NCBI GenBank assembly: GCA_041673665.1
Contig: JBAYXF010000001.1
Location: 1 to 55,879 of the forward strand
Direction of reading: 5' to 3'
Source of the DNA: Alphaproteobacteria bacterium
Lineage (GTDB): Bacteria; Pseudomonadota; Alphaproteobacteria; Rs-D84
DNA length: 55,879 bases
Below the pieces are notes generated by a model, which was given only the letters and a program-made list of their open reading frames with translations, ran no database searches and was not told the origin of the DNA. This document shows, piece by piece, positions 14,091-46,826 of the stretch. The translations under genes were made by a program, and so were the position numbers. Positions within the stretch are counted from its first letter, which is position 1; the number at the start of each line of letters is the position of its first letter.

Positions 14091-14158
14091 TACCACCCCA
14101 TACCTTTGTAATTTTTATTAAAATATGATACAATGCCTGGCGAAAAAGGGGCTTTGTT

Positions 14159-15352
14159 TTGGCATCAGAAAAATATCTTTCGATGAAGAAATCGGTAAAT
14201 GGGTTTTCGTTTGCAAACCTTGGTTTGTTTTATGGTTTTGGTAATGCGGTTGTAAATTCGGTTTATGCCCTGGTTTTAATGGATATTTTCCACAGCAGTT
14301 CTATCGTTGGTGTTTATACCTCGCTTTCTTATGGTTTGGTAATGTTATTAACCTTGACCACCAGTGAATTTTTTAAGCGATTTACTAAAACAAGAATATT
14401 TTATTCTTCTATGCTTATTGCTGGGATATTTGCATTTATGATGGCTTTTTCAATAAAGCCGATAACGTTTATTGTTTTGGATCAGCTTTCTTGGCTACCC
14501 TGGTTGCTTATTGGTGGGTGCATTCCATTATTCTTATCTGATTTTTCTAAAAAGACCGGTATGGATAAACTTAGTGGTCGGTATTATATGTGGTTGAATA
14601 TAGGTTCTACGATCGCCCCAATTATTGCGATGTTTTTTGCAGAAAACTATGGAAACAGATCTGCATATTTTGTGGCAAGTGCAATTATGCTTATTGGATT
14701 GATGTATTTTAGCAGTTATAAATTGGTGTCAGAAGATATGCCCATTAAAAAATTAATTCCACGCAGAACGCTTCATAGTATTATAAACAATATTCGTGTT
14801 TATTTTAAAAACTCCGGGTTACGAAAAGCGTATCTTATAAATTGTGGATATTATGCGGTATCAATTATAATGAGTATTTATATGCCCATAATTATTGTGG
14901 AAGAAAATGGCTTTTCAAAGGAAGTGCTGGGATATGTTTTGGCTGCATGTACTTTGCCCTATATTTTAATGGCGGCAATAATGCCGGTTATTTCCAAAAA
15001 ATTTGGGAAAAAGGTTTGTATTTCTGCGGGCTTTCTTATTTTTGCGACATTGGTAACGTTATCTGTTTTTGTAAATGGCTATACATTATTGGTGCTTTTT
15101 GTAGCATGGAATTTTGCGTTTGCGATGATAGAATCGTTACGCGATCTTTTGTTCTTTGATTCTGTTAATAATTCAGAGGCATCACGTTTTATCGGGATAT
15201 TTAATACAGGGGATAATGTTCCAAAATTTATAACTCCGATGATATGTGCAGGTGTAATTGCTCTTACTGGATCAACCAATTTTGTTTTGATAATTGCGGC
15301 GATTGTGGCCGTGTTATCGGCTTTTGTAATGATGTTGCCAGAGAAAAAATAA
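14159..15352 (+). CDS. MFS-type transporter
   Basis: About 12 predicted hydrophobic helices in 397 aa. The TTG start is uncertain; an in-frame ATG lies at 14183. No substrate is inferable. Confidence 0.65.
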   Translation: MASEKYLSMKKSVNGFSFANLGLFYGFGNAVVNSVYALVLMDIFHSSSIVGVYTSLSYGLVMLLTLTTSEFFKRFTKTRIFYSSMLIAGIFAFMMAFSIKPITFIVLDQLSWLPWLLIGGCIPLFLSDFSKKTGMDKLSGRYYMWLNIGSTIAPIIAMFFAENYGNRSAYFVASAIMLIGLMYFSSYKLVSEDMPIKKLIPRRTLHSIINNIRVYFKNSGLRKAYLINCGYYAVSIIMSIYMPIIIVEENGFSKEVLGYVLAACTLPYILMAAIMPVISKKFGKKVCISAGFLIFATLVTLSVFVNGYTLLVLFVAWNFAFAMIESLRDLLFFDSVNNSEASRFIGIFNTGDNVPKFITPMICAGVIALTGSTNFVLIIAAIVAVLSAFVMMLPEKK

Positions 15353-22419: not shown

Positions 22420-23856
22420 TTGCAAAGCGAAGCCCGTGGAAATTTTTTATTACAAGCTTTGCTTGCGATTGCCCTGGTAATGTTTTTTATGCCCTTTGTG
22501 GCACAAAAATTATCATCAAAGAAAAACGATTCCGAATTAAGCGCAATTGCACGCCAAGCAAACAGTGCTGCATATGCTGCACGTGAATTTATAAAAGCAA
22601 GCAAAGACAATCTTGCTTATGGTCAGCAACACTTTAAAGATGATGATTTTACCGATTTATTGGAACCGTTTGGTCTACCTTTGGGATTTGTTACACAAAC
22701 CAGTGCAAACCAGGAAATATCTCTTTTTACGGGAAAAAAAGAATCTGAAATTTTAAGTGTGATAGTTTTGCGTGGCGGAAATTTATCGGAACTTAAAAAA
22801 AGGGAGCTGCTTACGCGCATTGGGCCGGACGCCGCCATCGCTGATGCAGATGGAATTTTACATGGGATCGGTGGTTGGGAAAAGAATCTGAAAGATTTTA
22901 AAATCAAGCCGGATGTTTCGGCTGTTTACATTTTAATCCCTTCAGATGATGATTTTTCGGAACTTGTTCGTAGAAAAGCAGAGAATCTGGCCCGGGCAAA
23001 ATTTCATACTAATTTAAACATGGGAAATTTTTCTATAAAAAATGTTGTTTCGTTGACCACAAGAAATGCAGAATTTGACGTTGCTAATTTTGATACACTT
23101 TCTATTACTGGTTCCGGCGGGGATAGAAAATTTAAAAACGATATAGGTGTGTTGTCCACAAAGCGTGCGGTATTTCAAAAGGGGAAGGATGACAACCCAT
23201 TAAGCATTTATCGTGGCGATCTAAAAGCAACTGCATTGTATGCTCAAACATTATTTAAATATGGATTGCCAGGAACCATTTATGCAAACAGTGCTTCGCT
23301 AAATTCTTTATCTATGTCTGCTGGGCATACAGGATTTTATGGTATGTATGATTGGGATGTCCACAGTGATGTTATCTTAAACAATGTTTCTATAGATACA
23401 GAATATTTAGAAGTAAATGGTTTTATAAACGCTTCGCGCGGGCAAGACGTTTTTATTGATCAAGATGAGTTAACTTATTTCAGTAAAAGCGGAGTAGAAA
23501 CAGAATCTATAACCACGGCATTTATAACCTTACGAGATCAAATATCCAGTGCGTTATTATCTGGCGACGATAGTGCTATAATTATGGATATCAGGCCGGC
23601 CGGAGTCTCCGTGCTTCCTGACATTTTAGTAGACACCATAGATAATGATAATTTTCAAATTCTTAAAAATCCGGACTTGGATGATGGGGAAGTTGTTACT
23701 TGTAGAAGTATAATTTCATCACTTTCATCATCATCAACTTATAATTCAAAATCAGTAATACAAAATATTATTTGCCAGTTTGTATTTTGGCAACGACTGG
23801 AACGCCGTATAGATATTAAACAATGTTTGATAGATGGAAACAGTGATTGTGGATAA
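22420..23856 (+). CDS. Large type IV pilin-like protein P1 (prepilin-type N-terminus, 478 aa)
   Basis: The TTG start is preceded by AGGAGGG. N-terminus is MQSEARG|NFLLQALLAIALVMFFMPF, with Gly at -1, Gln at +5 and a 20-residue hydrophobic helix. It is paralogous to the next two ORFs. Four Cys lie in the last 51 aa. Confidence 0.6.
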   Translation: MQSEARGNFLLQALLAIALVMFFMPFVAQKLSSKKNDSELSAIARQANSAAYAAREFIKASKDNLAYGQQHFKDDDFTDLLEPFGLPLGFVTQTSANQEISLFTGKKESEILSVIVLRGGNLSELKKRELLTRIGPDAAIADADGILHGIGGWEKNLKDFKIKPDVSAVYILIPSDDDFSELVRRKAENLARAKFHTNLNMGNFSIKNVVSLTTRNAEFDVANFDTLSITGSGGDRKFKNDIGVLSTKRAVFQKGKDDNPLSIYRGDLKATALYAQTLFKYGLPGTIYANSASLNSLSMSAGHTGFYGMYDWDVHSDVILNNVSIDTEYLEVNGFINASRGQDVFIDQDELTYFSKSGVETESITTAFITLRDQISSALLSGDDSAIIMDIRPAGVSVLPDILVDTIDNDNFQILKNPDLDDGEVVTCRSIISSLSSSSTYNSKSVIQNIICQFVFWQRLERRIDIKQCLIDGNSDCG

Positions 23857-25096
23857 TTGCATTGATAAAAAATATTTTTATAAAGAGCAAAAAGGTTCAG
23901 GGTTAATGGAAACCCTGCTGGCAATTGCAATTGTTGGTGCAATAATGCCCTTTGCCTATAATAGTGTAATGGATATGAGTCGCAAAGTCGCGGATGTATC
24001 TGAATCAAAACGTATTATTGCATGGCAAGATCCAGTTATGGCATATGTTCGTAAAAATCAGGCAGATTGGCCATCAAATGCCCAGGTAGAATTTGATGAG
24101 GAAGAGGTTGTTAATATTGGCACAGGAGATAATCGTTTGCTAAAACCATATGCTGGGTTTATTGAAAAACGCGAGGGTTCGGGGGGAATATCAATAAATG
24201 CATATCTTGCTTTTAAGCCGGTTGATATAAAAAAAGTAAGGGTTGCGAATATCGTTCAAAATATAGGTGTTGATGCCGCAATGGTGCAATCTGGCGGTGA
24301 AGCCGTCAGCCAAAGCGGGTGGAGTATTTCATCGGAATTATTTACAGAAGGTGATTTAATTTTCAGGGTTTCTGATATTTTGGGTGAAGACGATGTATAT
24401 AAATATTTACACAGAACATATCTGGATGATAAAGAATTAAATACTATGCGGCGAGATTTGGATATGGCAAAGAACAGTATATCTGGGGTTGGGAAAATAA
24501 CGGCGCAAACTATAAATGCAACAGGCGCAAAAGCCTGGTTTGTTAATTCTTCAAAAGTTATAACAAACGAAATCTTTTTCCCAGAGGGGATGACAATTGA
24601 TGCGTCCAAGGCCATATTTGGGTCTATAACAGTAAATGGCGACGTTAATGGTTTTAGAAAAATTACAGCAGATAAATTAAAACATGTTGGGACAATGTCC
24701 AGTGCTACATGGGCAACCAAGGGGGATATAATTGCGGACTCGGTCAATATAAATGGACCGGTACATGTTCAGCGTGATATGGTTGTAAAATCAGAAAGCG
24801 CACGGACAATTACTGGGTTTGCTGGAATTCGTACCCAGGCGGTTGCTACGCCATATTTATATGCGGACAATTTAATTTTCCAGGCAGGTTATGGAATAAC
24901 AATTTCCAGTGATTTATTATATTCTAGTTCTGGCGAATCAATCACAATAGGTAGCTGGAGGTTTCCATCAACAACAGGGCCGGGATTTTCAGAATTGATT
25001 TTGAAAAAAACAAGCGATGAAGAATTTGGAGAAGCGCTGGCAACGCCAGATAGTGAAGATTTTTCTCCGCTGATGACAAGCGGGTGGAAAGATTAA
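23834..25096 (+). CDS. Large type IV pilin-like protein P2 (420 aa)
   Basis: N-terminus ...DKKYFYKEQKG|SGLMETLLAIAIVGAIMPF, with Gly at -1 and Glu at +5. The leader aligns with that of P3, which favours the ATG at 23834 over the internal ATG at 23906. It overlaps the P1 stop by 23 nt. Confidence 0.6.
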   Translation: METVIVDNCIDKKYFYKEQKGSGLMETLLAIAIVGAIMPFAYNSVMDMSRKVADVSESKRIIAWQDPVMAYVRKNQADWPSNAQVEFDEEEVVNIGTGDNRLLKPYAGFIEKREGSGGISINAYLAFKPVDIKKVRVANIVQNIGVDAAMVQSGGEAVSQSGWSISSELFTEGDLIFRVSDILGEDDVYKYLHRTYLDDKELNTMRRDLDMAKNSISGVGKITAQTINATGAKAWFVNSSKVITNEIFFPEGMTIDASKAIFGSITVNGDVNGFRKITADKLKHVGTMSSATWATKGDIIADSVNINGPVHVQRDMVVKSESARTITGFAGIRTQAVATPYLYADNLIFQAGYGITISSDLLYSSSGESITIGSWRFPSTTGPGFSELILKKTSDEEFGEALATPDSEDFSPLMTSGWKD

Positions 25097-25112
25097 GTAA
25101 TTTATAAAATAA

Positions 25113-26417
25113 ATGAAAAACAAAAGAAAATTTTTTAAAAATGAATACGGCGGAATGATGTTAGAAATTCTGCTGTCGTTGGCAATTACAGTTGCTGTTG
25201 TTCCATTTGTTATGCGCGAGTTAAATAGTCGTACGCATCGTGCTGAAAATGTTCGTATTGCGCGCGATATCAGCGAGACTAAAGAAGCCTTGGAAAGATA
25301 TATGACTGCTCATAAACTCAAATTATTAGAGCCGTCTGGTCGTGTAGTTATCAAGGTTAAAATTAGTGATTTATCAGAATACGGAAACATTCCAAAAGAT
25401 CATGAAAAATTTCAAGCACGCATAATAAAATCTAGGAGTATCAGCGGGCGTACGGTGTTGTCTGGTATGGTTATATATGATTCTGCAGAGATATCGCCAA
25501 TTCGTACACGCGAAATAGCTGAACTGGGTGGGGAATCATCAGGGTTCATAGATAATAACCAAGCACATGGAGTATTTGGTACGTGGCATTCTAGAACAAA
25601 TATTTTTGATGCAACGTTCAGTAACAATTCTGTCGTAGAAAATACAAATACAATTTTGTCAGGTGGGGATTTTTTATGGAGGCTTCCTTCAAAAAATTCT
25701 CTTGATGCATCAATGTCAACAGACTTGCTAATCGGAGATAACAGTATAGAAGATGTTTCAACAATTGATACGTATGGGGCGAATTTTACAGAAATTTTAA
25801 AATCGGGTTTAATTAATGTAGAAACGGTTCAGATTACACCACGTGCGGAATTGTCTGCAGAATTAAATGTTTCCGGGGAAACGCTAGTAATCGGAGCATT
25901 AACATCAGATTCAAGAAGCGCAGAAATAAGCGGAAGTTTATCATTAACTGATACAGGTACAGTTTCAAAATTAGAAGCAAGAGAGATATGGGTTGGGGAT
26001 TTGACTTTGAACGGATTAACTATTAATGGCAGTGCCGAGCCAGCAATTTTAAAAGTTAGTAGCACGATAGATATTACAAGAGGAAAAATTACAACAACAA
26101 CAGCGACTATTGGATATACTGGATCTGTTTCTCCAAAGATTGTTGTAACAGACCGTATAGAAGATCCATCAAATTCTTCATATTATTGGGATTTAACAAC
26201 AGATAAAGCATCTTTTTCAGATGTTTACTGTGCTGAACTAAATCAGATATTAAAAACCGCAATTACTAATGAATCACAAACTATAAGAACCAAGACGGAA
26301 ACAATAATAAGGGCAATTGCCGCAAACAGCAATGCTACTATTTCTGATTATGTCAAGGCATTAAGTGAAATTCAAACCAGTGTAACAGCGAAATATAATA
26401 ACTTGAATTTAGACTAA
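25113..26417 (+). CDS. Large type IV pilin-like protein P3 (434 aa)
   Basis: N-terminus MKNKRKFFKNEYG|GMMLEILLSLAITVAVVPF, with Gly at -1 and Glu at +5. It shares internal motifs with P1 and P2. Confidence 0.6.
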   Translation: MKNKRKFFKNEYGGMMLEILLSLAITVAVVPFVMRELNSRTHRAENVRIARDISETKEALERYMTAHKLKLLEPSGRVVIKVKISDLSEYGNIPKDHEKFQARIIKSRSISGRTVLSGMVIYDSAEISPIRTREIAELGGESSGFIDNNQAHGVFGTWHSRTNIFDATFSNNSVVENTNTILSGGDFLWRLPSKNSLDASMSTDLLIGDNSIEDVSTIDTYGANFTEILKSGLINVETVQITPRAELSAELNVSGETLVIGALTSDSRSAEISGSLSLTDTGTVSKLEAREIWVGDLTLNGLTINGSAEPAILKVSSTIDITRGKITTTTATIGYTGSVSPKIVVTDRIEDPSNSSYYWDLTTDKASFSDVYCAELNQILKTAITNESQTIRTKTETIIRAIAANSNATISDYVKALSEIQTSVTAKYNNLNLD

Positions 26418-26451
26418 TTCTGGATAAAATAATATAAAAATAAAAAAGAAA

Positions 26452-26930
26452 ATGAAAATAACGTGCCCTTTTTGCAAAGTAAATTATTCTGTTCGTAATG
26501 ATAATAATCATACATACGAATGTGCTGTATGTGGTTGTGTTTGGCGGGCACCGATCATTCAAAAAAAATCAAAAATATTGGTTTTCTCATTATACTTTTT
26601 GGTTTATTACTGGCTGCTTTATCTTTGGCCGCCATGATTTTATGGTTCCCACTTGGAAAGCAAAACGCTTTATCTGTTTATATGGACTCTGCACAATCGG
26701 TTGGCGATGTTTTAATTGTTTCAGGCCAGATTGAAAATAAGTCAGAAAAATTACACGGTATACCAGATTTAATGATTGTAATAAAAGATGATAATGATAC
26801 AGAAATATCAACACAAAAGTTTGCGCCACCAGCACCATTATTAGATGCCGGGGAAAAAACAAATTTTTCGGTTCAGGTTCATAATGTCCCAGAAAAAATA
26901 GCAAAAGTTTCAGTAGAGTTAAATGATTAA
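26452..26930 (+). pseudogene. MJ0042-type zinc-ribbon / TM / DUF3426-like protein, interrupted by a -1 frameshift
   Basis: Frame A (26452-) encodes MKITCPFCKVNYSV...YECAVCGCVW, a CxxC...CxxC zinc ribbon. Frame B (through 26930) encodes the expected TM helix (IGFLIILFGLLLAALSLAAMILW) and a beta-rich DUF3426-like domain. The frames meet at the A8 tract. Confidence 0.7.
26561..26568 (+). repeat. A8 homopolymer at the frameshift point (A_AAA_AAA in the upstream frame)
   Basis: Read directly: cattc-aaaaaaaa-tcaaaaat. One additional A would fuse the two frames. Confidence 0.9.
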
Positions 26931-26949
26931 TATGCAAAAGGTATTTAAT

Positions 26950-27405
26950 ATGAAAAAAATCTTTTTAACTATTTTGTTTTCAATAATTTGTATGTCCGCA
27001 TATGCAGCAATAAGCGCGGTAAGTATATTTTCTACCAGTACAGACTGGGAAAGGGTTACAGGATTACGCTATAGCCAATTTGATGTTTCTTTTGTGCGCG
27101 ATAAATCATTGGGCAGTAAAGGGATGGAGATTTATTTTCTAGATGGATTTCCATGCATAGGACAGGCTGAAACAGCCAGGGCTTGGATTTCCCCCAGTAA
27201 TTTTTCAAGCAAGGATAAAAAGGCAAACATGAACATCAGTTGTGTGCAACGTCCGAAACAAATTCGATTTGCATGGCGCGAAGCGAATGAAAAAGATTCT
27301 CAATCTAAAACAACCGGCATAATGACTTGTCAGATAGCCGGGGATGGACGTGAAATAGAAATTTTATTAAGTGATTGCGTCAAGGGGAAAAACTGGAATG
27401 AGTAA
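26950..27405 (+). CDS. Secreted hypothetical protein (about 151 aa)
   Basis: Sec signal MKKIFLTILFSIICMSAYA|A, with four Cys in the mature part. The start is taken at the ATG at 26950 rather than the track start at 26923. Confidence 0.5.
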   Translation: MKKIFLTILFSIICMSAYAAISAVSIFSTSTDWERVTGLRYSQFDVSFVRDKSLGSKGMEIYFLDGFPCIGQAETARAWISPSNFSSKDKKANMNISCVQRPKQIRFAWREANEKDSQSKTTGIMTCQIAGDGREIEILLSDCVKGKNWNE

Positions 27406-38156: not shown

Positions 38157-38771
38157 TTATTCCTTAAAATCATCAGGGTTTATATTTAATTCTGTTTTTA
38201 TTCTGTGCTCTAACCTTTTTTGAATTTCATCAAAAACTTGCAATAAAGCCGGTTCTGAAGCAAACATATCACGATAAGACTTGCTGAAATACCATTTCCA
38301 ATAAACCCCATTATCATAAGAACCAATATGATCCAACGTCTTTGAAAATAATGTTTGGAAACATACATCTAATCTATCAAGCATTTTTACAAATTTTGAT
38401 TCTGGTGTTTTTTGTTCCTCGTATTCTTGCCATAAAGTTTCAAACTCTGAATTATTCAGCAATTTTGTAAATTCATTCATTATTTCAGTTTCGTCTTTTT
38501 CTTTTTTTTCACGTGCCGCATCATCATTTAATGTTTTATGCGCTGGAATATCATGAGATTTACTTTCTGGCAAGTCGTGCGCAGCACAAAGTTTTAAAAC
38601 GCGTTCCATATTAAGTGTTACGGATGCTTTTGGAACAAATGTTATCGCCATCAATGACAGCATAAAACAATGTGCAGCCACAGATTGTTGTTCCCCATCG
38701 GACATTCTGGTTGTGCGTTTTTCATAATGTAAATGTTCCGCTGTTTTAAAAAATTCAATAATATTATTCAT
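38157..38771 (-). CDS. HD-domain phosphohydrolase (YfbR-like 5'-nucleotidase family)
   Basis: QSVAAHCF...AAHDLPESKSHDIP matches the H...HD...D pattern of HD_3 proteins. The start is taken at the ATG at 38771, overlapping the upstream stop by 8 nt. Confidence 0.6.
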   Translation of the reverse strand: MNNIIEFFKTAEHLHYEKRTTRMSDGEQQSVAAHCFMLSLMAITFVPKASVTLNMERVLKLCAAHDLPESKSHDIPAHKTLNDDAAREKKEKDETEIMNEFTKLLNNSEFETLWQEYEEQKTPESKFVKMLDRLDVCFQTLFSKTLDHIGSYDNGVYWKWYFSKSYRDMFASEPALLQVFDEIQKRLEHRIKTELNINPDDFKE

Positions 38772-40074
38772 CCAAATACTCGCGCAGTTTATCTCCGGAA
38801 AGTTCAGCGGCCGGTTCATCGTCCGCAGAGTCTACGATTGAAATAACACGTGGGCTCATGAATATCACCAATTCTGCAAATGGGTTTATTAATGTTTCAG
38901 ATGTTGTTACAAAGCTGTGTGTTGGGATGCCGATAATTACATAATTATCACCCAGTTTTGTTGGAACGTTAAAACTGGCCAGTTCCCCAGCGGTTGTACG
39001 CAGTGCAATTTTCGCATCTACTTTTTTCATATCGGCGTATTTTCCATATTTACCAGTTGCGCCAACGATTAAATCAGTTTCCAATCTGTCTTCGCGTGAG
39101 CATTGACCAATATCAAATCTGCTTTGCCAGCCGTTTGGTATTACAAATGTTCCCTGGGAAATTAAAACTACATTTGCTTGGTCGGATAAAAATGTTTGTA
39201 ATGTTTTTGTGTTTATTTCTGGGGATACAACCAGCAATCTGCCAACAACGCCAGGGATAGACATTTTGACATTCTTTTCCCCAAATGCGGGCAGCATATT
39301 CATCCAAACAATTGGATTGTCGGTACGTGGATATACACGGTATACATCCATATCCCATGCAACCAAGAATTTTTTATTTCCGATATCGGAAACGATATCA
39401 CGAACTTTCTTTTCGATTTGATAATTCCCTTCGAACGCCAAGGTTTTATCTTCCCAGTTAGTTATTAAATTACGCAAGTCAGCACCATGCATTGCATCAA
39501 TTAATGCCATGATTACGTATTGATCTTTAGGCATTTTCATCAGCCATTTTCCACGACTGGAAATACGAAGCTCTCTGGTGTCGTCGTCATAGGTATAGTA
39601 AGTTTTACCAAGTTTACAAATTAGTTCTACGGCGTCTTCTAGTGTTCCAGATGTAATCTCACCACTGATTAAGTCAGGTAATTTCTCACTGGCAACAATT
39701 TTAATTTTTGTTCCATCAAGTAATTTTTCCAAAACAGCTGGTACATTTTTTTTCTGGAAAGAAAAATTTTCTACAGCAAAATCTGGAAGATTATCGCCCT
39801 TGTTCAAACGAACAATTTCAACGGGCGTTGTTGGCAGAACAGATAATATACTTTGGTTGTCCCAATCAACTTTGCATCGTTTTGGCAAATCAATTGCAAA
39901 TTTTTGTGCGGTATCTGTTGTTAAAGCAGCCTTGCGTGGAAAGATCGGAACAGAATGTTCGTCCACTACAATGTTTTCAACCACTTGGACAGTGTCATAT
40001 TGTTGTTGATTTCGACTTTGAAATTGTTGGCATGCACCAACAAATAAAATCAAAAGCAAATATAATTTTCTCAT
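38764..40074 (-). CDS. Outer-membrane lipoprotein with a divergent secretin-like C-terminal domain
   Basis: Lipobox LFVGAC. The C-terminal half reads NVVLISQGTFVIPNGWQSRFDIG ... ASFNVPTKLGDNYVIIGIPT ... FAELVIFMSPRVISI. This parallels the secretin pattern (vLssP.i.t.nn..a.i.vG ... t.v.v.dG.tvviGGl ... eLlifitPrii). Confidence 0.4.
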   Translation of the reverse strand: MRKLYLLLILFVGACQQFQSRNQQQYDTVQVVENIVVDEHSVPIFPRKAALTTDTAQKFAIDLPKRCKVDWDNQSILSVLPTTPVEIVRLNKGDNLPDFAVENFSFQKKNVPAVLEKLLDGTKIKIVASEKLPDLISGEITSGTLEDAVELICKLGKTYYTYDDDTRELRISSRGKWLMKMPKDQYVIMALIDAMHGADLRNLITNWEDKTLAFEGNYQIEKKVRDIVSDIGNKKFLVAWDMDVYRVYPRTDNPIVWMNMLPAFGEKNVKMSIPGVVGRLLVVSPEINTKTLQTFLSDQANVVLISQGTFVIPNGWQSRFDIGQCSREDRLETDLIVGATGKYGKYADMKKVDAKIALRTTAGELASFNVPTKLGDNYVIIGIPTHSFVTTSETLINPFAELVIFMSPRVISIVDSADDEPAAELSGDKLREYLDE

Positions 40075-40083
40075 TTTGGTCCC

Positions 40084-40392
40084 TTATATATTCATAACAC
40101 GTTCAAATTCTTCGAGTGTCATTTCATAGATTGGTTTATTACTGGGGGTAATCAAATTTTTTGCACCCTGAAATTCGGTTTGATATTTTTTTATCAATGC
40201 TTTTAATTTGGCGTCGGTGGGATTTATTTTTTCGCCGTACGCATTCAGCATTTCCAGAACATCTGCCGCAAAAAAGCGCCCCGTATAATTTTCAGCTGCG
40301 ATACCACCTTTTTGGGTACGTATTGCGGCGGATAAAATTTTCAAAGCCTCATAAAATCCGGCTATACGGATATATCTTTCTTCCGCGGTCAT
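40084..40392 (-). CDS. Hypothetical cytoplasmic protein, 102 aa (first gene of the secretin-like/lol operon)
   Basis: ORF only, predicted helical. It lies 9 nt upstream of the lipoprotein gene on the same strand. Confidence 0.4.
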   Translation of the reverse strand: MTAEERYIRIAGFYEALKILSAAIRTQKGGIAAENYTGRFFAADVLEMLNAYGEKINPTDAKLKALIKKYQTEFQGAKNLITPSNKPIYEMTLEEFERVMNI

Positions 40393-40529: not shown

Positions 40530-40919
40530 ATGAAAAGAACTTTTGTCCTTGTTGCTTTATCGTTTGCGCTTTTGGTGGGATGTTCATCTGCTAATCGTGG
40601 ATCCATTGACGATGCGACGGTTTTAAATTGGGAAAATGATATGGTTACGACCGAACAATTTGTTCGTGATCATAAAAATTGTTTGGGAATAACACGTTCC
40701 CCTTATGAACCCAGATCTAGATTAGCCAAGCTTATCAGCCCAAATCAATCCAGTTTGATGCCAGATTGGGATGGCTTATGGGTGACTTTTCAATCCAATG
40801 AAAATAAAGACATCGGGCAGCGTTCTTTGATGTCGGTTCCTCCTAATTCCAGCTCCAGATCAGTTGGGGCGTATCGTAAATGTATGATGCGTCGTGGTTA
40901 TTTGTTGCGCGCAAATTAA
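40530..40919 (+). CDS. Hypothetical lipoprotein, 129 aa
   Basis: Signal peptide with lipobox LLVGC. No recognised domain. Confidence 0.5.
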   Translation: MKRTFVLVALSFALLVGCSSANRGSIDDATVLNWENDMVTTEQFVRDHKNCLGITRSPYEPRSRLAKLISPNQSSLMPDWDGLWVTFQSNENKDIGQRSLMSVPPNSSSRSVGAYRKCMMRRGYLLRAN

Positions 40920-40958: not shown

Positions 40959-41642
40959 ATGAAAAACAGATTTGTATTTTGGTTGATATCCAGTCTTACC
41001 GTCATACTTGTAATTTATGTAGCGGTTCGCGTCAGTATAGTATTATTGGGGTTGGGCGGAACATTATCAGATATAAAAAAACTTACAGTTTATTCCAGTA
41101 ATGGTGAAACGGCCGATATAATTGAGCGTTTGGGCATCACCCCTGGAACCAAACATATTGATTTGGACGATATTCTGGCAAAGGTTTCTGAAGATCCCGA
41201 TCTTTCCGGGGTTGCAATTCGACGCTTGCCAAATGGCGAAATTAATGTTCGTGCCGATATGCGGGTTGTTGTCGCGGGTTGGACAGATGGGGAAAAATAT
41301 TATCCTTTGGACAATAATGGGGTCCCAATTAATAGAGCGTTACCAACAAGACCGGAAAATACTCTGATTTTTTCAGGTAAGGTTCCAAAAGATATATCAA
41401 AAATAATAAACATAGTAAAGCACACCCCTGGGCTTTTCAGTCGCATTGACAGAATGGAATTTATAGAAGATAGACGCTGGAACATTTTTTTATTAAACGG
41501 AATTAAAATTATGTTGCCCGAAGAAAATTTTGAAGAAGCTATAAAAAAAATTGATAAAACTAACAAACAAAATATGATTTTGGACAGACAGATAAAATTG
41601 CTGGATATGCGGGATTTATCAAGACCATTGGTGAAATTATAA
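40959..41642 (+). CDS. ftsQ: Cell division protein FtsQ
   Basis: N-terminal TM helix, POTRA-like region, and RWNIFLLNGIKIMLPEEN motif. It lies immediately upstream of ftsA. Confidence 0.8.
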   Translation: MKNRFVFWLISSLTVILVIYVAVRVSIVLLGLGGTLSDIKKLTVYSSNGETADIIERLGITPGTKHIDLDDILAKVSEDPDLSGVAIRRLPNGEINVRADMRVVVAGWTDGEKYYPLDNNGVPINRALPTRPENTLIFSGKVPKDISKIINIVKHTPGLFSRIDRMEFIEDRRWNIFLLNGIKIMLPEENFEEAIKKIDKTNKQNMILDRQIKLLDMRDLSRPLVKL

Positions 41643-41648
41643 ACAAAT

Positions 41649-43421
41649 ATGAATTTAACAGAAGGCTCTTTTTTGTGTTTAGATATAGGTTCGGGCGGGG
41701 TGCACGCGGTCGCTGCACGGGTTTGTTTTGGACGGCTTAAAGTTTCATCAAATATATATGTTGAATCCAGGGATATTGTGTATGCGGTCAAGACGGCGGT
41801 GGATAATTTAGAAGAACAAATAGGGGCCAGATTCGACAAGGCGTTTGTTACGGGAAATTTCGGAGAAATTAAATCAGAAATTTTTTCAAGAAAAAGCGTA
41901 TGGGAAACAGAACGAAAAATTACACCAAATGATATTCTAGAACAAATATCAGATGTTACCCAAGATGATATTTCTGTATTACATATAATGCCTTTACGTT
42001 ATGATTTAGGGGGTGCGCGAAATCTTTCTAACCCGCTGGGGCATATTGATCATGCATTGCATTCGGTGTTTAATGTAATTGCTTATTTGAACAAGGGTTT
42101 AATGCGCGCAAAATCTGCGTTGCATGCTGCACATCTAGAGTCCGAAGGTTTTTTCGATCCGATGTTTTTGCTGGGATTGTCTGCGCGCAAAGCATCAGAA
42201 AATTCTGTATTCATAGATTTTGGCGCAGAATTTACCAGCGTTTCTATGTGGACCGCGCGTGGGCCGATGTTGATTAAAAAAATACCAATGGGCGGGATTG
42301 ATATTACAAGGGCAATTGCTAATACTTTTAATTTACCAATTATAGAAGCAGAAAGATTAAAAATTTCCAGCATGAATCTGGAACAATCTGATATGGATAG
42401 ATTTACTCCGGCGGATTCTAAATATGATATAACCAGATTTGATGTGAACGAAATAGCAAGCAGTGTTTTTTCTGAAATTATATGTCAGGTTGGTGATGTT
42501 TTAAGCACAGGAATAGAAAAATATAATCCAGAACGACTGTATGTAAGTGGTGGTGGCTCTGGTACTAACGGATTAGAAAAGTTTTTAAAAAAAGAATTTG
42601 GTATGCCGGTTAAAAATATGGGCTCGTTCGGTATAGTTAATTCATTGGCAGAATTTGTATGGAATACTGAATCTGAAAGGGTCAAAGGATATTTAGAACG
42701 CAGAAAAAAATGGGAAAAATTTTTTAACTTTTTAGCAGCACCATTGAATTGGAGATTTTATCCACGTCGTAAAAAAATTATTCCGATTATGCCCAGTACT
42801 TTATGTTGGGACATGCGAAGTTCAGACACTTATGCCAGATTTGAATCTGCAGATATCAGTATGATTCATGTTGATATAATGGATGGATTTTATGTTGAAA
42901 GAATTGCCAGTGGAATTGATGAACTTCGATTCATACGTGCGCATACCGCGGCTCATTTACACGTTCATTTAATGACGGAAAACCAGGCGACTTGGACGAA
43001 AGAAGCGATTGAATGTGGTGCGGACACAATTATTGTTTCAACCGGAACAAATGGTGTAATTCGTGCGTTAAAAGAAATACAATCTGCGGGAAAACGTTCT
43101 GGAATTGCGTTACATCCAGAATCTTCGTTAGAAGTTATAGCCCCAGTTTTAAGGGGTGTTGATGAAGTAATGGTAATGTCAGTTATCCCAGGAGAATCAG
43201 GACAAGAGTTTATAGAAGAGTCAATATCAAGAATTGCTTCTCTTGCTAATACCAGACGCAAACATGGATTAAAATTTAAAATTTCTGTTGATGGCGGAAT
43301 AAATCCGGAAACGGCGAAAAAATGTTGGGCGGCTGGCGCGGATTTTCTAGTCTCTGGCAGTTTTTTAAGTGGTGCTCCAGATTTTGCCGTAGCGGTGCAA
43401 GAACTTTTGGAAAAAAAGTAG
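41649..43421 (+). CDS. ftsA: FtsA-like cell division protein fused in frame to a ribulose-phosphate 3-epimerase-like domain
   Basis: aa 1-350 are an actin-fold FtsA (LDIGSGGVHAV, 1C/SHS2 region ITPNDI..VLHIMPLRYDLGG, GGIDITRAIA, LYVSGGGSG). aa 351-370 (RRKKWEKFFNFLAAPLNWRF) look like the FtsA amphipathic membrane-targeting helix. aa 375-590 carry RPE motifs (IHVDIMDG, HVHLM, MSVIPGESGQEF, VDGGI, GADFLVSGS). No stop codon separates the parts. Confidence 0.7.
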   Translation: MNLTEGSFLCLDIGSGGVHAVAARVCFGRLKVSSNIYVESRDIVYAVKTAVDNLEEQIGARFDKAFVTGNFGEIKSEIFSRKSVWETERKITPNDILEQISDVTQDDISVLHIMPLRYDLGGARNLSNPLGHIDHALHSVFNVIAYLNKGLMRAKSALHAAHLESEGFFDPMFLLGLSARKASENSVFIDFGAEFTSVSMWTARGPMLIKKIPMGGIDITRAIANTFNLPIIEAERLKISSMNLEQSDMDRFTPADSKYDITRFDVNEIASSVFSEIICQVGDVLSTGIEKYNPERLYVSGGGSGTNGLEKFLKKEFGMPVKNMGSFGIVNSLAEFVWNTESERVKGYLERRKKWEKFFNFLAAPLNWRFYPRRKKIIPIMPSTLCWDMRSSDTYARFESADISMIHVDIMDGFYVERIASGIDELRFIRAHTAAHLHVHLMTENQATWTKEAIECGADTIIVSTGTNGVIRALKEIQSAGKRSGIALHPESSLEVIAPVLRGVDEVMVMSVIPGESGQEFIEESISRIASLANTRRKHGLKFKISVDGGINPETAKKCWAAGADFLVSGSFLSGAPDFAVAVQELLEKK

Positions 43422-43527
43422 AAAAAGAAACAAATAATTTTTTTTTATTTTAATATGTCCTTTTTTAACTTTTCTCTTTTTATTATTTTCTTTCTATGAT
43501 AAAATATGATAAAGAAATGGTGGGAAT

Positions 43528-46272
43528 ATGAGAATAAAAAAAGCAATTATTGTTGGTTTAGTGCTACCTTTGGTATCAGAAATCTGTTCAATGTCAGCTG
43601 GGGCTGTAACTTATATGACGACGGCTTCGTCGCGTCCAAGTACGACTGCACGCATGCCGACGTTGTCATACAGCGCGTCGTCCAGCACATCGTCCAGCAC
43701 GACATCAACAAATGCTGGCTTGCTTGCAACTTGTGCAAATCCATTGCCAGATCGTTTGACATCGGGACGTTGTATCGACAGATATGATTCTTGTTTGCGT
43801 CAGGATAACGTTTGTGGTGAACATTTTGAACTTTGCTATAATTTAAAACAATTTAATAAATCTCGTATTATGTGCCAAGAATATTTGGCGCAATGTCCAG
43901 CCGAAGCAGTTAAAGCAATATTTGGAAATTCTGTAACGACATCTAATGATTTGTTGTCGGCAAACCGCACCATGTGTGATGGGGAATCTCTTTTGACCAA
44001 AAGAACATTTTCACCAGCGTTGGGCGATATTGGGGTTGCCGCCGACAGTCGTATAGACTTGGCCATTAAAGAGGGTAAAAACTGGGCAGCCGCTAACAGT
44101 GTTAAAACATGTAATAAAATTGCGGACGCTTGTATACAAAATGCTTGTAAGAAATCCCCACAAAAATGTATTTCTTTGGATGGGTTTTCTGACATAGATG
44201 CATCTGAAATGGTTAATATCGCCACATCTGGCGAAACTACATTGCGTATAAATGCAGATATGCTGACAATGTGGCTTAATAATATGGCATGGGATGGTGA
44301 TAATGTTAAAAATTACATCAAAGAACAATGCCGTGATACTGTTGGTTCTAATGAGTGGTGCTTTATGGTCACAAATGGTACGCCGGCGAAAGAAGTTGAT
44401 TTAACCGACAGCTTTAATATTCAAGAAGTTTACCAAGATATTATGTATAATGGCGTTGGTGCTCGTTGGAAAATGGCACAGTCCAAGATAAAAGAATGGG
44501 CTGCATTAGCAACTAAGAAATCCGTAGAACAATGTAAAGATGCAATGACAGATTGTGCCGTGAATGCTTGTGGTGAAGGATCCAAGGCCCGTTGCTATGG
44601 TTTGGCTAAAGATGGCAATACTGTCAGTATAAAAAATAAAGCTGGTTCTGATATTACAGGCCAATGTGAAAATTTGATTGAAAATAATCAATATTGTAAA
44701 GATGTATTCCGTAATAAAGATACGGGCGAAGATGGTGACGTTTGGGCAGCGGTATGGACCGAGGACTTAATGGGCGCAATTGTCGGATTGGATTCAGATT
44801 TACAAAAAGCATTTAACGAAGCAGCAGTTGCTCAAATGCGTAGCAGTTGCCAGGCTCAGGCTGAAAAATGTGTAGAAAGTGAATGTGGAACAGATTTCTC
44901 GCGTTGCTTTATTACCAGTATAGAGGCAAAGAAAAATAGCAGTGTTTCTTTTTCTGAGGGTTCAGCAATAAGCAGCAATTTATATGCTGGTGGATTTGAT
45001 GAAGTTTTGGCACGTAACTTGTGTATGTTAAAGATTAAAAAATATACAGATTGTATAGATTACTTTGATGTTCAGTATGCCAAGGCAACAACCGGGACCA
45101 GTGCAGATTCTTGGGGAACGTCAAGCAATGTTCGTAATGCATGGCTAGATGCTGCAAATAGTGATTCTGCAGATAAGGTTTGCCGTGTATCGGAAACTTA
45201 TATAGATCAAGTTGATGAATCTGGAAATGCTGTTGATACTACTAAAAAATTAGCACCTAAGGTTAAAACTTGTGCTACACAAGAACGTAGTATATTTGAT
45301 GGTTTATTGTCAGATATCAGCAAACGTGCTAATTCTGTATTAGAACGCGAAGCAAATGATCTTAAGAATGCATGTGAAAATAGCAATGCCAAGGGTTCAA
45401 CCGGTAAAAATTATATTTGGGCGGCTTTGTCTGACTTGGATTCATCCGATGAATATGATGGGTTCAGCGATGTTACTGCAACCAGTAATCCGTTTGACGG
45501 GTTCTGTGCGGTCAAGGTAACGATCCGTTCCAACAATTCCAAGGTAAACGATGCGCTGGGTAGTGATAAATATATGTATTACCCAAAGGGTACATCTATG
45601 CAATGTTTGGGTTTGACAACAAGCGAGTTGGAAAAAGTTGAACGTGCAGTTGCATCAGATGTTAATTTCTGCGGCAAAGGCGAAACAGCATCAACAGGCG
45701 GATGTGTAGAAAAATTGTCCGGGTTGCAAAAAACCCTTCGGATTGGTGGCGCAACAATTGCTGGTGTGGCAGTCGGCGGTTTGGGTGGAACCTTGGCAGG
45801 GAATGCTTTGGGGAACGCTACTACAAAAAGTAGCAAGCTGTCCGCTGCAGATACTGCTTTATATGCAGACTGTCAAAGCTGTTTTAAAGCAGGGGGTAAA
45901 GGATATAGTGGATTACAAGCATGTGTAGCTGTTGATGATCCAGATAACCCAGATGCAACCGAAGCATTAGCAAAATGTAATAACAAAATAAGCGAACTAC
46001 AAGCAAAGAGAGGCACTGGTAAAAAATCTGGCAGTAGTGGTTTGTTAAATATGTCTAGTACTGGTGGTAAAATAGGCGCTATTGCTGGTGCAGGGCTTGG
46101 TGGTTTAGCCGGTGGACTTCTTGCTGGTAATGCTATCAAGGAAAATGCAGATACAAAGCTTGAAGATGCACGGCAACAAGCCATAGCAGACTTTAATGCT
46201 AACACAGATATAAATTGTTATATCAATGGCAAAAAAGTCGCATCGTATGGTCAGGATATGATTGTTAAATAA
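43528..46272 (+). CDS. Large secreted cysteine-rich protein with C-terminal glycine-zipper segments (914 aa)
   Basis: Signal peptide MRIKKAIIVGLVLPLVSEICSMSAGA, then a Ser/Thr-rich linker. There are 38 Cys in the mature part, including repeated C-x6-C-x4-C-x6/7-C modules. Two Gly-zipper hydrophobic stretches are present (IGGATIAGVAVGGLGGTLAGNALG and GGKIGAIAGAGLGGLAGGLLAGNAI). A strong terminator follows. Confidence 0.6.
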   Translation: MRIKKAIIVGLVLPLVSEICSMSAGAVTYMTTASSRPSTTARMPTLSYSASSSTSSSTTSTNAGLLATCANPLPDRLTSGRCIDRYDSCLRQDNVCGEHFELCYNLKQFNKSRIMCQEYLAQCPAEAVKAIFGNSVTTSNDLLSANRTMCDGESLLTKRTFSPALGDIGVAADSRIDLAIKEGKNWAAANSVKTCNKIADACIQNACKKSPQKCISLDGFSDIDASEMVNIATSGETTLRINADMLTMWLNNMAWDGDNVKNYIKEQCRDTVGSNEWCFMVTNGTPAKEVDLTDSFNIQEVYQDIMYNGVGARWKMAQSKIKEWAALATKKSVEQCKDAMTDCAVNACGEGSKARCYGLAKDGNTVSIKNKAGSDITGQCENLIENNQYCKDVFRNKDTGEDGDVWAAVWTEDLMGAIVGLDSDLQKAFNEAAVAQMRSSCQAQAEKCVESECGTDFSRCFITSIEAKKNSSVSFSEGSAISSNLYAGGFDEVLARNLCMLKIKKYTDCIDYFDVQYAKATTGTSADSWGTSSNVRNAWLDAANSDSADKVCRVSETYIDQVDESGNAVDTTKKLAPKVKTCATQERSIFDGLLSDISKRANSVLEREANDLKNACENSNAKGSTGKNYIWAALSDLDSSDEYDGFSDVTATSNPFDGFCAVKVTIRSNNSKVNDALGSDKYMYYPKGTSMQCLGLTTSELEKVERAVASDVNFCGKGETASTGGCVEKLSGLQKTLRIGGATIAGVAVGGLGGTLAGNALGNATTKSSKLSAADTALYADCQSCFKAGGKGYSGLQACVAVDDPDNPDATEALAKCNNKISELQAKRGTGKKSGSSGLLNMSSTGGKIGAIAGAGLGGLAGGLLAGNAIKENADTKLEDARQQAIADFNANTDINCYINGKKVASYGQDMIVK

Positions 46273-46276
46273 AAAA

Positions 46277-46298
46277 AGCCGGCGAAAGCCGGTTTTTT
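46277..46298. terminator. Bidirectional rho-independent terminator
   Basis: Stem gccggc/gccgg with GAAA tetraloop, an A7 run upstream and a T6 run downstream. It lies between convergent genes. Confidence 0.8.
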
Positions 46299-46316: not shown

Positions 46317-46826
46317 TTATTTTTTAAACCATTTTTTTAAATCATCATAAGCAGCAGAAATTTTTGTAAATTCTGATGCTGCAGCGCTTTTATTTTTTGC
46401 AGTATCTGGATGACATGTTTTTGCAAGTGTGCGATATTTTGCCGATATTTCACGCCAATTTGCGGTTGGGGGCAGGTCAAAGACTTTTAATGCGTTTGAC
46501 ACTGCAGCAGGCGCACGGACAGGGCGTTTACGTGCAGATGTTGTATCAAATGCGCTGCGGCCATTTAAAAAATTGCGCAGAAAATCTATATATTCTGCAT
46601 TTGCTGCTTCTGCGGCTGCACGATCTTTGTCGGAAATTCCAAATGTTTCGCGTTCCCAATCTTGTTCAATTTCATCATTGCTCATCCCAGCATAATAATT
46701 CCAATTTTTATTGTATTCTGCAGCATGCTCTTTGCAGAACCAGTAATATTCGTTCAGGTTGCGTGATTTAGGGGCGCGACATACGCCCGCCTTGGTACAA
46801 CCTTTAAAATCACATTTTTTAATCAT
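46317..46826 (-). CDS. J-domain protein with N-terminal Cys-rich zinc-finger-like region
   Basis: C-terminal J domain with an HPD tripeptide (YRTLAKTCHPDTAK). N-terminal region is CDFKGCTKAGVCRAP..YWFCKEHAAEYNKNWN, an architecture common in Alphaproteobacteria. Confidence 0.75.
   Translation of the reverse strand: MIKKCDFKGCTKAGVCRAPKSRNLNEYYWFCKEHAAEYNKNWNYYAGMSNDEIEQDWERETFGISDKDRAAAEAANAEYIDFLRNFLNGRSAFDTTSARKRPVRAPAAVSNALKVFDLPPTANWREISAKYRTLAKTCHPDTAKNKSAAASEFTKISAAYDDLKKWFKK

Follow-up and report, generated by a model that had tools for sequence, protein, structure and literature searches.

The locus and its features

The DNA analysed here comprises 55,879 nucleotides (the whole of contig JBAYXF010000001.1, positions 1 to 55,879, assembly GCA_041673665.1; hereafter, the window) from an alphaproteobacterium of the order Rs-D84, and includes a gene for a cysteine-rich protein of 914 residues. 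The product is identical to WC137_00215, a protein deposited with this metagenome-assembled genome and annotated as hypothetical. The gene is real, conserved and single-copy, and belongs to a previously undescribed family. The features of the gene and its product are listed below; pLDDT denotes the predicted local distance difference test score of the structural model.

43422..43527, plus strand: AT-rich intergenic leader of 106 bp (83% A+T, from the sequence), with a Shine-Dalgarno-like GGTGGG at 43519-43524
43528..46272, plus strand: complete coding sequence of the 914-residue cysteine-rich protein, stop codon included
43528..43605, plus strand: signal peptide (residues 1-26), MRIKK followed by a hydrophobic core and SAGA, with predicted cleavage before V27
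43606..43731, plus strand: disordered N-terminal stretch (residues 27-68), motif [AS]-R-P-S ... R-x-P-[ST] and then a Ser/Thr-rich linker; pLDDT below 40
43732..44037, plus strand: domain D0 (residues 69-170), helical six-cysteine ladder C82-x6-C89-x6-C96-x6-C103-x12-C116-x6-C123, plus C69 and C150; pLDDT above 90
44038..45117, plus strand: tandem helical six-cysteine repeats R1 (residues 171-300), R2 (301-410) and R3 (411-530), C-x6-C-x4-C-x6/7-C and then C-x9-C; pLDDT above 90
45118..45732, plus strand: domain D4 (residues 531-735), mixed alpha/beta, with seven cysteines
45742..45816, plus strand: glycine zipper 1 (residues 739-763), G741-x3-G745-x3-G749-x3-G753-x3-G757-x3-G761; pLDDT below 50
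45817..46062, plus strand: fast-evolving insert (residues 764-845), helical hairpin with four cysteines (C782-x2-C785, C799, C817) and a basic C-terminal end
46063..46269, plus strand: portable C-terminal module (residues 846-914), composed of zipper 2 (G846/850/854/858/862), a helix (866-891) and a beta-hairpin, I895-x-C897-Y-I-x-G ... Y-G-x-D
46273..46298, either strand: bidirectional intrinsic terminator hairpin (-16.3 kcal/mol, z = -4.7; 0 of 200 shuffled sequences fold equally well)

An earlier reading of the window, made from the letters alone (the sequence-only reading), had described an AT-rich upstream region and a very strong terminator, and both descriptions hold. The A+T content of the leader compares with 62% in the window; the leader presumably contains the promoter, and no strong sigma-70 consensus was found in it. 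The terminator is common to the cysteine-rich gene and the convergent DnaJ-domain gene (46317-46826, minus strand).

The protein begins with a Sec-type signal, as the sequence-only reading had proposed. The signal peptide was called from the layout of its n-, h- and c-regions and from an A-x-A cleavage site conserved across homologues. A lipoprotein signal was rejected, as the context of C20, VSEIC, is not a lipobox, C20 is absent in many homologues, and a conserved A-x-A site for signal peptidase I follows. In the N-terminal motif, R36, P37, R42 and P44 are invariant or nearly so in the alignments; the x-R-P-[STA] half occurs in 109 of 153 sequences, 97 of which also carry the R-x-P-[ST] half. 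The Ser/Thr-rich linker, which had likewise been noted, spans residues 34-62.

An AlphaFold2 model obtained from a 75-sequence alignment has a mean pLDDT of 78.6 and a predicted template modelling score of 0.60. Residues 70-730 mostly score above 90 and are largely alpha-helical, D4 being mixed alpha/beta, and the tail is modelled as a helix followed by a beta-hairpin. The insert forms a helical hairpin (residues 770-830, pLDDT 87-93). Values below 50 are limited to the first 63 residues, both zippers and a few loops. The repeats are related to one another in hhalign comparisons (R2 versus R3, probability 88%, E = 3e-6; R1 versus R2, E = 7e-4; R1 versus R3, E = 4e-4), and D0 is duplicated in the 'Enterousia' branch of the family. 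In D4, all aligned members retain C616, C660 and C693; P0108, a divergent member, likewise has just three cysteines in this domain. I895 and C897 of the tail hairpin are invariant in the alignments.

Family and distribution

A full scan of 1.84 billion representative proteins returned 114 clusters of the family, 75 of them with E < 1e-30, and the C-terminal signature is the same in all clusters inspected. The sequence-only reading had suggested a pattern search in related genomes; when one genome per GTDB species was scanned, relatives were found in 231 genomes of the order Rs-D84. The genomes come from the guts of humans, ruminants, birds, rabbits and termites, many under the name 'Candidatus Enterousia'. 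Credibly named carriers are always an uncultured gut alphaproteobacterium or 'Ca. Enterousia', and membership of the family is confined to Rs-D84 ('Ca. Enterousia'), an order of reduced-genome gut alphaproteobacteria. In alignments A1 and A2, the window protein stands first and possesses every invariant column. It has the signal peptide, the [AS]RPS...RxP[ST] motif, the cysteine framework C89...C616, the two zippers and the I-x-C-x-I-G-G...Y-G-D tail that define the family. No paralogues of the full-length protein were found nearby.

A few carriers have discordant labels. Loci L006-L009, which are 67-89% identical and also share flanking genes with the window, were deposited as 'uncultured Muribaculaceae bacterium', and the more distant L079 (27% identity) as 'Bacteroides fragilis'; all are probably mis-binned or mislabelled. 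The most divergent member, P0108 (901 residues, no insert cysteines; locus L087, contig Ga0466694_086586), is flanked on both sides by phage-like genes for a terminase, a head-tail connector, a capsid protein and a lysozyme, and dnaB is also close.

Bacteria of the order Rs-D84 occur widely in the guts of humans, livestock, birds and termites. None has ever been cultured; their genomes measure 0.7-1 Mb, and most biosynthetic capacity is missing. According to a published analysis (PMC12306168), genomes of the lineage are smaller than 1 Mb and encode neither a respiratory chain nor standard transporters, glycolysis is incomplete, and the cells probably depend on partners. Contigs of related genomes measure 716,531 bp (OZ246409.1), 886,885 bp and 958,618 bp, and at least one is labelled circular. 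For a lineage of this kind, the 914-residue protein offers a handle on envelope biology as a marker, as an antigen for enrichment or imaging, and as a test case.

The sequence-only reading recognised no family, and the searches agree. Pfam and NCBIfam scans of the 914-residue protein gave no significant match (Gly-zipper_Omp, E = 3.1, 8.3 bits, cut-off 25). Searches of PDB sequences with the family profiles A2 and A3 yielded compositional matches only (the prion hydrophobic core, designed binders), together with non-significant matches to YaxA/XaxA. The full model had no match in Foldseek (PDB, best E = 1.9, TM score below 0.13; BFVD, best E = 0.32), and a search of a 5.8-billion-protein set with profile A2 added no new or named members. 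Neither a known family nor a solved fold is detectably related to the protein, and its predicted fold is novel.

Cysteine framework and parity

The 914-residue protein contains 39 cysteines. As C20 lies inside the signal peptide, 38 remain in the mature chain, the number counted in the sequence-only reading. The four modules singled out there are all present at the residues given: three repeated ones (C195-x6-C-x4-C-x6-C214, C336-x6-C-x4-C-x7-C356 and C441-x6-C-x4-C-x6-C460) and the C82-x6-C89-x6-C96-x6-C103 ladder. Each repeated module is followed, 23-53 residues downstream, by a C-x9-C pair (268/278, 380/390 and 499/509). These cysteines, all 18 of R1-R3, are invariant in 75 homologues at an overall identity of about 25%, and the pattern is therefore far beyond chance.

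Cysteine counts vary among the 75 full-length members in the body (D0 to D4; 27-41 cysteines) and in the insert (0-8), and the tail has one. Parity varies far less: the body count is odd in 71 of the 75 members, the insert count is even in 74, and the odd/even/one combination is found in 70. It is also kept in the two most divergent members (body/insert/tail, 29/0/1 in P0108 and 35/2/1 in P0115), and 99 of 109 sequences have an even total downstream of the N-terminal motif. Because regional parity is fixed despite varying counts, cysteines appear to be gained and lost in pairs within each region, which points to disulfides rather than to four-ligand metal sites. The 914 residues include a single histidine, so that haem or His/Cys metal sites are unlikely, and there is no CxxCH motif. 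In the model, cysteines are spaced about two turns apart along the helices, a geometry that would suit helix staples. Support for a disulfide-stabilised protein is indirect but strong, and comes from these sequence patterns. The one unpaired cysteine of the body probably lies in D4. The mature cysteine counts of other exported window proteins are mostly even (2, 4, 4, 0, 1, 4, 0, 3, 2 and 2), a weak hint that the envelope of the organism is oxidising.

A portable C-terminal module

The C-terminal module also occurs on other exported proteins of the order. For instance, a 655-residue exported protein (L088:4379-6346), encoded in an Enterousia genome after the ftsA::rpe fusion gene described below, features the same zipper and the tail I-K-C-T-I-G-G-Q-x-V-A-E-Y-G-D. 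A metagenome scan with this protein identified two more carriers of the module: L092:1828-3279 (483 residues), which has a different passenger with 26 cysteines, and L093:2476-3258 (260 residues). The L093 passenger can be aligned with the full length of the domain of Pal, the peptidoglycan-associated lipoprotein (PDB 2hqs_H, E = 5e-4), and its match to Pfam OmpA (E = 0.003) falls below threshold. Aligned with the main family, the three C-termini gave an hhalign probability of 97.2% (E = 4e-11). A six-frame translation of about 1.3 Mb contained the tail motif nowhere but in the main family and one paralogue. Since the module is common to unrelated exported passengers, one of which is bound to touch peptidoglycan, it is most simply taken as an envelope anchor or sorting element. 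The Sec-type signal, and a module shared with exported proteins including a Pal-like binder, support the view that the 914-residue protein is itself an exported envelope protein.

In the L093 protein, the module stands in place of the lipid anchor of a Pal-like peptidoglycan binder. A further protein, L091:1324-3906, has the zipper region and the cysteine-rich domain of the L088 protein without the module. The exported Rs-D84 proteins L088, L091, L092 and L093 are built from a common kit of Pro/Thr-rich repeats, glycine-zipper stretches, cysteine-rich domains and the module.

Glycine zippers and membrane topology

The two glycine zippers reported in the sequence-only reading (residues 739-763 and 846-867, nucleotides 45742-45816 and 46063-46128) are exact i+4 glycine ladders. 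Most family members have runs of at least four small residues spaced at i+4, and G750, G753, G754 and G758 reach at least 90% conservation in an 18-member alignment. Only 3-4 of 22 members give any Pfam zipper match. The zippers are 79 residues apart in the window protein, and do not form a tight hairpin of two transmembrane segments; paralogues carry a single zipper.

Summed Hessa-type insertion energies over 19 residues average +4.45 kcal/mol for zipper 1 and +3.94 kcal/mol for zipper 2 across the family, in contrast to about -1 to -5 kcal/mol, on the same scale, for genuine single-span inner-membrane anchors encoded in the window. No positive-inside bias is seen (Lys plus Arg, 3.65 towards the insert and 4.61 towards the body and tail). 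Energies, charges and the even cysteine parity of the insert together speak for segments that cross through Sec and have their role outside the inner membrane, and the same three features (parity, charge distribution and hydrophobicity) speak against an inner-membrane hairpin whose insert is cytoplasmic.

Evolution of the insert and of the body

The insert is the least conserved part of the family, with a length of 73-286 residues and identities of 8-25%. In the comparison with the closest relative (L008), the nonsynonymous substitution rate (dN) is 0.011 in D0-R3, 0.025 in D4 and 0.67 in the insert, and the ratio to the synonymous rate (dN/dS) is 0.03, 0.05 and 0.72, respectively. The insert thus evolves about 25-60 times faster than the body; dS is raised in the insert too (0.94, versus about 0.4-0.5 elsewhere). 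Purifying selection on the large body is very strong between close relatives. The insert ratio of 0.72 can be explained by near-neutral drift in which the sole constraint is the keeping of cysteine pairs, and no positive selection is claimed.

The decoupling of insert and body is order-wide. Where two bodies are 93-97% identical, the inserts often reach only 22-40% identity; in a few pairs the inserts are more alike than the bodies, which suggests exchange. An insert that spans the outer membrane under diversifying selection was considered and downgraded, because the ratio fits near-neutral drift and the single-zipper paralogues create a conflict of topology. Over long distances, the cysteine-rich gene is the fastest-evolving of its neighbourhood (48-53% identity, versus 60-85% for its neighbours).

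Genomic context

The cysteine-rich gene is preceded by ftsQ (40959-41642) and by a gene for a fusion of an FtsA-like protein with ribulose-phosphate 3-epimerase (ftsA::rpe, 41649-43421), a fusion not mentioned in the sequence-only reading. In the clade of the window (12 loci, down to about 48% identity), ftsQ, ftsA::rpe and the cysteine-rich gene are accompanied, on the opposite strand, by a DnaJ-domain gene, a XerD-like integrase gene and lptG. Different arrangements are found in the rest of the order. In about 65 Enterousia-type species, the cysteine-rich gene is located downstream of a cluster homologous to the window genes g22-g27, after an rluD-like gene. In other Rs-D84 genomes, the site behind ftsA::rpe is vacant or taken by a different gene; tsaE or the 655-residue module-bearing paralogue follows in three of them. 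Neither of the two conserved contexts offers an obvious operon partner. No ftsZ was found after ftsA::rpe in any locus seen. The sequence-only reading had remarked that the gene sits where ftsZ would be expected; the gene does follow ftsQ and an ftsA-like gene, but the position is coincidental. As it is not conserved across the order, the gene is no FtsZ replacement and its location is no clue to function.

The fusion gene itself (plus strand) encodes 590 residues with an FtsA-like actin fold (Pfam FtsA, and weakly PilM_2 in orthologues) and a complete ribulose-phosphate 3-epimerase, and is conserved across the order (587-592 residues in L001, L004, L005, L088, L089 and L090).

The window encodes LptG, AsmA-like, MltA, LpoA-like and LolC/LolD-like (MacB/FtsX-type ABC) proteins, and the organism is therefore diderm and has peptidoglycan.

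Two further groups of window genes may bear on export. A 436-residue lipoprotein (38764-40074, minus strand; lipobox LFVGAC) has no Pfam match even at E values up to 10. Identity across the order is 64-70%, and the homologues, which number more than 1,200, are without exception annotated as hypothetical. The AlphaFold model is weak overall, with a mean pLDDT of 53 and about 85-90 in residues 80-230, and Foldseek returned almost only secretins (BfpB, E = 7e-5; EscC, 5.6e-4; PilQ, 5.9e-4; also GspD, XcpQ and InvG). The C-terminus, AELVIFMSPRVIS, resembles the end motif of secretins. Judged by its modelled fold, the protein is probably a cryptic liposecretin. The second group (22420-27405, plus strand) consists of three paralogous proteins of 420-478 residues, g22, g23 and g24, with prepilin-type N-termini, followed by a weakly DUF3426-like protein and an exported protein of 160 residues. 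Gly at -1 and Glu at +5 precede a hydrophobic helix in 60 of 61 g23 orthologues and in 63 of 63 g24 orthologues with a detectable motif; g22 has Gln at +5.

Proposed arrangement and alternative explanations

The best-supported reading, which we hold to be somewhat more probable than its negation, is that of a Sec-exported, disulfide-stapled, outer-membrane-associated periplasmic scaffold held by a lineage-specific glycine-zipper anchor. Rs-D84 would have its own set of modular envelope proteins, of which this is the universal one. After export, essentially all cysteines would form disulfides (about 19), stapling the helices of the body and closing the insert, and the odd cysteine of the body would pair with C897 of the tail or with another molecule. 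The C-terminal module would hold the protein at a membrane, most likely the outer one by analogy with the glycine-zipper outer-membrane proteins SlyB, YfgH and YiaD, and the conserved body of about 660 residues would sit in the periplasm as a rigid, protease-resistant scaffold. The sequence-only reading had proposed a disulfide-stabilised surface or host-interaction protein. Disulfide stabilisation agrees with the parity seen in 70 of 75 members and with the single histidine, and an exported envelope protein with the signal and the module; surface display or host interaction finds no such backing in a body with a dN/dS of 0.03 and a near-neutral insert.

Several observations count against this scaffold. 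AlphaFold does not model the zippers as helices (pLDDT 28-44), and the isolated C-terminus scores below the Pfam cut-offs for PF13488 (14.4 bits, cut-off 25) and PF05433 (11.6 bits, cut-off 24.2). The protein has no lipoprotein signal, unlike SlyB and YiaD. In the paralogues, a single zipper separates the tail from a passenger that is probably periplasmic; were the 914-residue protein to span the membrane with both of its zippers, the module would have opposite orientations in the two kinds of protein. The tail cysteine has no intramolecular partner in two of the three module paralogues (26+1 and 2+1 mature cysteines; 15+1 in the third), so that a disulfide between the body and C897 is not secure and is one possibility, the alternative being an intermolecular bond. 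No Dsb- or thioredoxin-type gene was detected among the 31 window proteins scanned with Pfam (the window is about 6% of the genome), and a classical quinone-dependent DsbB is not expected in an anaerobic lineage without respiratory chains. How such an anaerobe makes about 19 disulfides is a question that the protein raises.

A more far-reaching version of the proposal is possible, and we rate it as clearly less probable. In this version, the module represents a new alpha-helical system for outer-membrane sorting and anchoring of Sec-exported, disulfide-rich proteins in an order of parasitic or epibiotic bacteria; the split zipper crosses the membrane and displays a fast-changing, disulfide-closed tip, the protein serves as a contact or conduit device to partner cells, and the disulfides, about 19 in number, are made in an unconventional way. 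If the module is an alpha-helical outer-membrane anchor, it joins very few others in bacteria, and does so in the class from which mitochondria arose, whose outer membrane is rich in helical anchors.

Two other placements of the protein were weighed, both of them unlikely. A surface-displayed adhesin or contact protein, the less unlikely of the two, would require that the folded body cross the outer membrane, for instance by way of the cryptic secretin and pseudopilin-like proteins encoded nearby, with the zippers in the outer membrane and the body attached to a partner or host cell. A fixed orientation of the module, in which the Pal-like passenger is periplasmic and the tail outside, would put the 914-residue body outside. 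The gene follows the prepilin-like cluster g22-g27 in about 65 species, lies 3.4 kb from the secretin-fold lipoprotein gene in the window clade and diverges faster than its neighbours, as described above, in a lineage thought to depend on partner cells (PMC12306168). However, a body dN/dS of 0.03 is unusual for an exposed adhesin, and the only fast-evolving part would be periplasmic. Moreover, neither a secretion ATPase, a platform protein nor a prepilin peptidase was detected; of three lineages covered by a published survey, type IV pili are reported for UBA9783 only, and not for Rs-D84 (PMC12306168); and the adjacency to the prepilin-like cluster is interrupted by the rluD-like gene and differs between clades. 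Alternatively, the protein may be periplasmic and anchored in the inner membrane, with zippers that are ordinary transmembrane helices, forming either a hairpin with a cytoplasmic insert or a single span, zipper 2, with a cytoplasmic tail. A signal peptide and a C-terminal hydrophobic segment make up the standard type-I layout, which needs no special biogenesis, and Lys/Arg residues immediately follow zipper 2 (KKNQ at the equivalent place in the paralogues). A cytoplasmic tail would also explain the unpaired tail cysteine of two paralogues. Yet the insertion energies are well above those of genuine anchors in the window, a positive-inside bias is missing, the even parity of insert cysteines (74/75) argues for an extracytoplasmic insert, and the conserved odd cysteine of the body would be left without a partner.

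The three remaining explanations are less probable still. Long, marginally hydrophobic (GxxxG)n ladders are typical of proteins that switch from a soluble to a membrane form, such as VacA, Caulobacter CdzC/D and several effectors of type VI and type VII secretion systems. The ladders of the 914-residue protein are of this kind, and its paired zippers may insert in the membrane of a partner cell and oligomerise to a pore or conduit, with the disulfide-rich body as a delivery scaffold. Weak, non-significant profile matches to YaxA/XaxA (E = 0.19-0.27) and a lineage without standard nutrient transporters (PMC12306168) fit such a permeabilising device. We nevertheless consider it improbable, as matches to pore-forming toxins (ClyA, XaxA/YaxA) are non-significant in PDB profile searches (E = 0.19-1.1) and missing from the Foldseek output, the gene has no immunity-like neighbour, and the module also ends a Pal-like peptidoglycan binder, which suggests self-anchoring rather than attack. 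That the cysteines are ligands of metals or iron-sulfur clusters, in a periplasmic redox or metal-storage protein, is very improbable. The four-cysteine modules resemble metal-binding spacings superficially only, and an anoxic gut habitat makes disulfide formation harder to explain. Strict regional parity at varying counts and inserts with two or six cysteines misfit four-ligand sites, and both the near-absence of histidine, with no CxxCH, and the modelled staple geometry speak against ligands. Least credible of all is a cell-division protein that replaces FtsZ at the end of the ftsQ-ftsA cluster. The place of the gene immediately after ftsQ and the ftsA-like gene in the window would fit, but the protein is exported, has no tubulin/FtsZ domain in Pfam or NCBIfam and is encoded elsewhere in about 65 species, and tsaE or an unrelated gene comes after ftsA::rpe in three other genomes.

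Comparison with known systems

The outer-membrane-associated scaffold shares single traits with several known systems. Alpha-helical GxxxG zippers have been described in outer-membrane proteins (bioRxiv 10.64898/2025.12.22.696046). SlyB, YfgH, OsmB, YiaD and the Rickettsia 17-kDa antigen family (PF05433, PF13488) resemble the 914-residue protein in having hydrophobic GxxxG helices, in being exported and in occurring in diderm bacteria, and YiaD pairs a zipper with an OmpA/Pal-like domain, as does one module paralogue. In contrast to lipoproteins of the SlyB/YiaD type, the 914-residue family has no lipobox, and its zippers are C-terminal and split by an insert of 73-286 residues; a conserved helix, a cysteine-containing beta-hairpin and the cysteine-rich body of 660 residues are additional to anything in PF05433 or PF13488, and the weak Pfam zipper scores of some members stay below the cut-offs.

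As a short conserved C-terminal element on unrelated exported passengers of one lineage, the module is comparable to the C-terminal domain of type IX secretion substrates and to PEP-CTERM, GlyGly-CTERM and MYXO-CTERM, the last of which also has an invariant cysteine. It differs from them in the order of its parts (zipper, helix, cysteine hairpin) and in the lack of a terminal basic cluster, and we know of no sortase-like enzyme for it.

The chlamydial proteins OmcB and OmcA, which are thought to give the Chlamydia envelope rigidity via disulfides, are likewise exported, unusually cysteine-rich envelope proteins of a reduced-genome, host-dependent bacterium. There is no similarity in sequence (Pfam, NCBIfam) or fold (Foldseek), Rs-D84 has peptidoglycan enzymes, and parity in the Rs-D84 protein points to mainly intramolecular pairing. 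Twin-Cx9C (CHCH) proteins and the Sel1-like Hcp proteins of Helicobacter also feature cysteine pairs about two helical turns apart (C-x6-C, C-x9-C) in predicted helix-turn-helix units, and the likeness suggests that the modelled helices of the 914-residue protein may be pinned together by disulfides. The principle of cysteine pairs on adjacent helices is all that is common, as no Pfam match was obtained even at E values up to 10; the Rs-D84 spacing is C-x6-C-x4-C-x6/7-C, the unit is larger (about 110-130 residues, six cysteines), and the location is the bacterial envelope.

Other genes

No tRNA genes or Rfam families above threshold were found in the 56-kb window. Two small genes are located between the secretin-like gene and ftsQ and encode a protein of 102 residues (40084-40392, minus strand) and a lipoprotein of 129 residues (40530-40919, plus strand), neither of which has a family match. 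Both are 75-97% identical in the window clade; in the comparison with L088, an Enterousia genome, the lipoprotein is 80% and the 102-residue protein 44% identical. In another locus, L003, a 678-residue exported Gln-rich protein with many cysteines (13021-15057, plus strand) is encoded two genes downstream of the Enterousia orthologue. It carries a C-x6-C-x4-C-x4-C stretch, CNAVILRCAQPKCANGGC, which is reminiscent of the modules of the 914-residue protein, a resemblance by pattern only.

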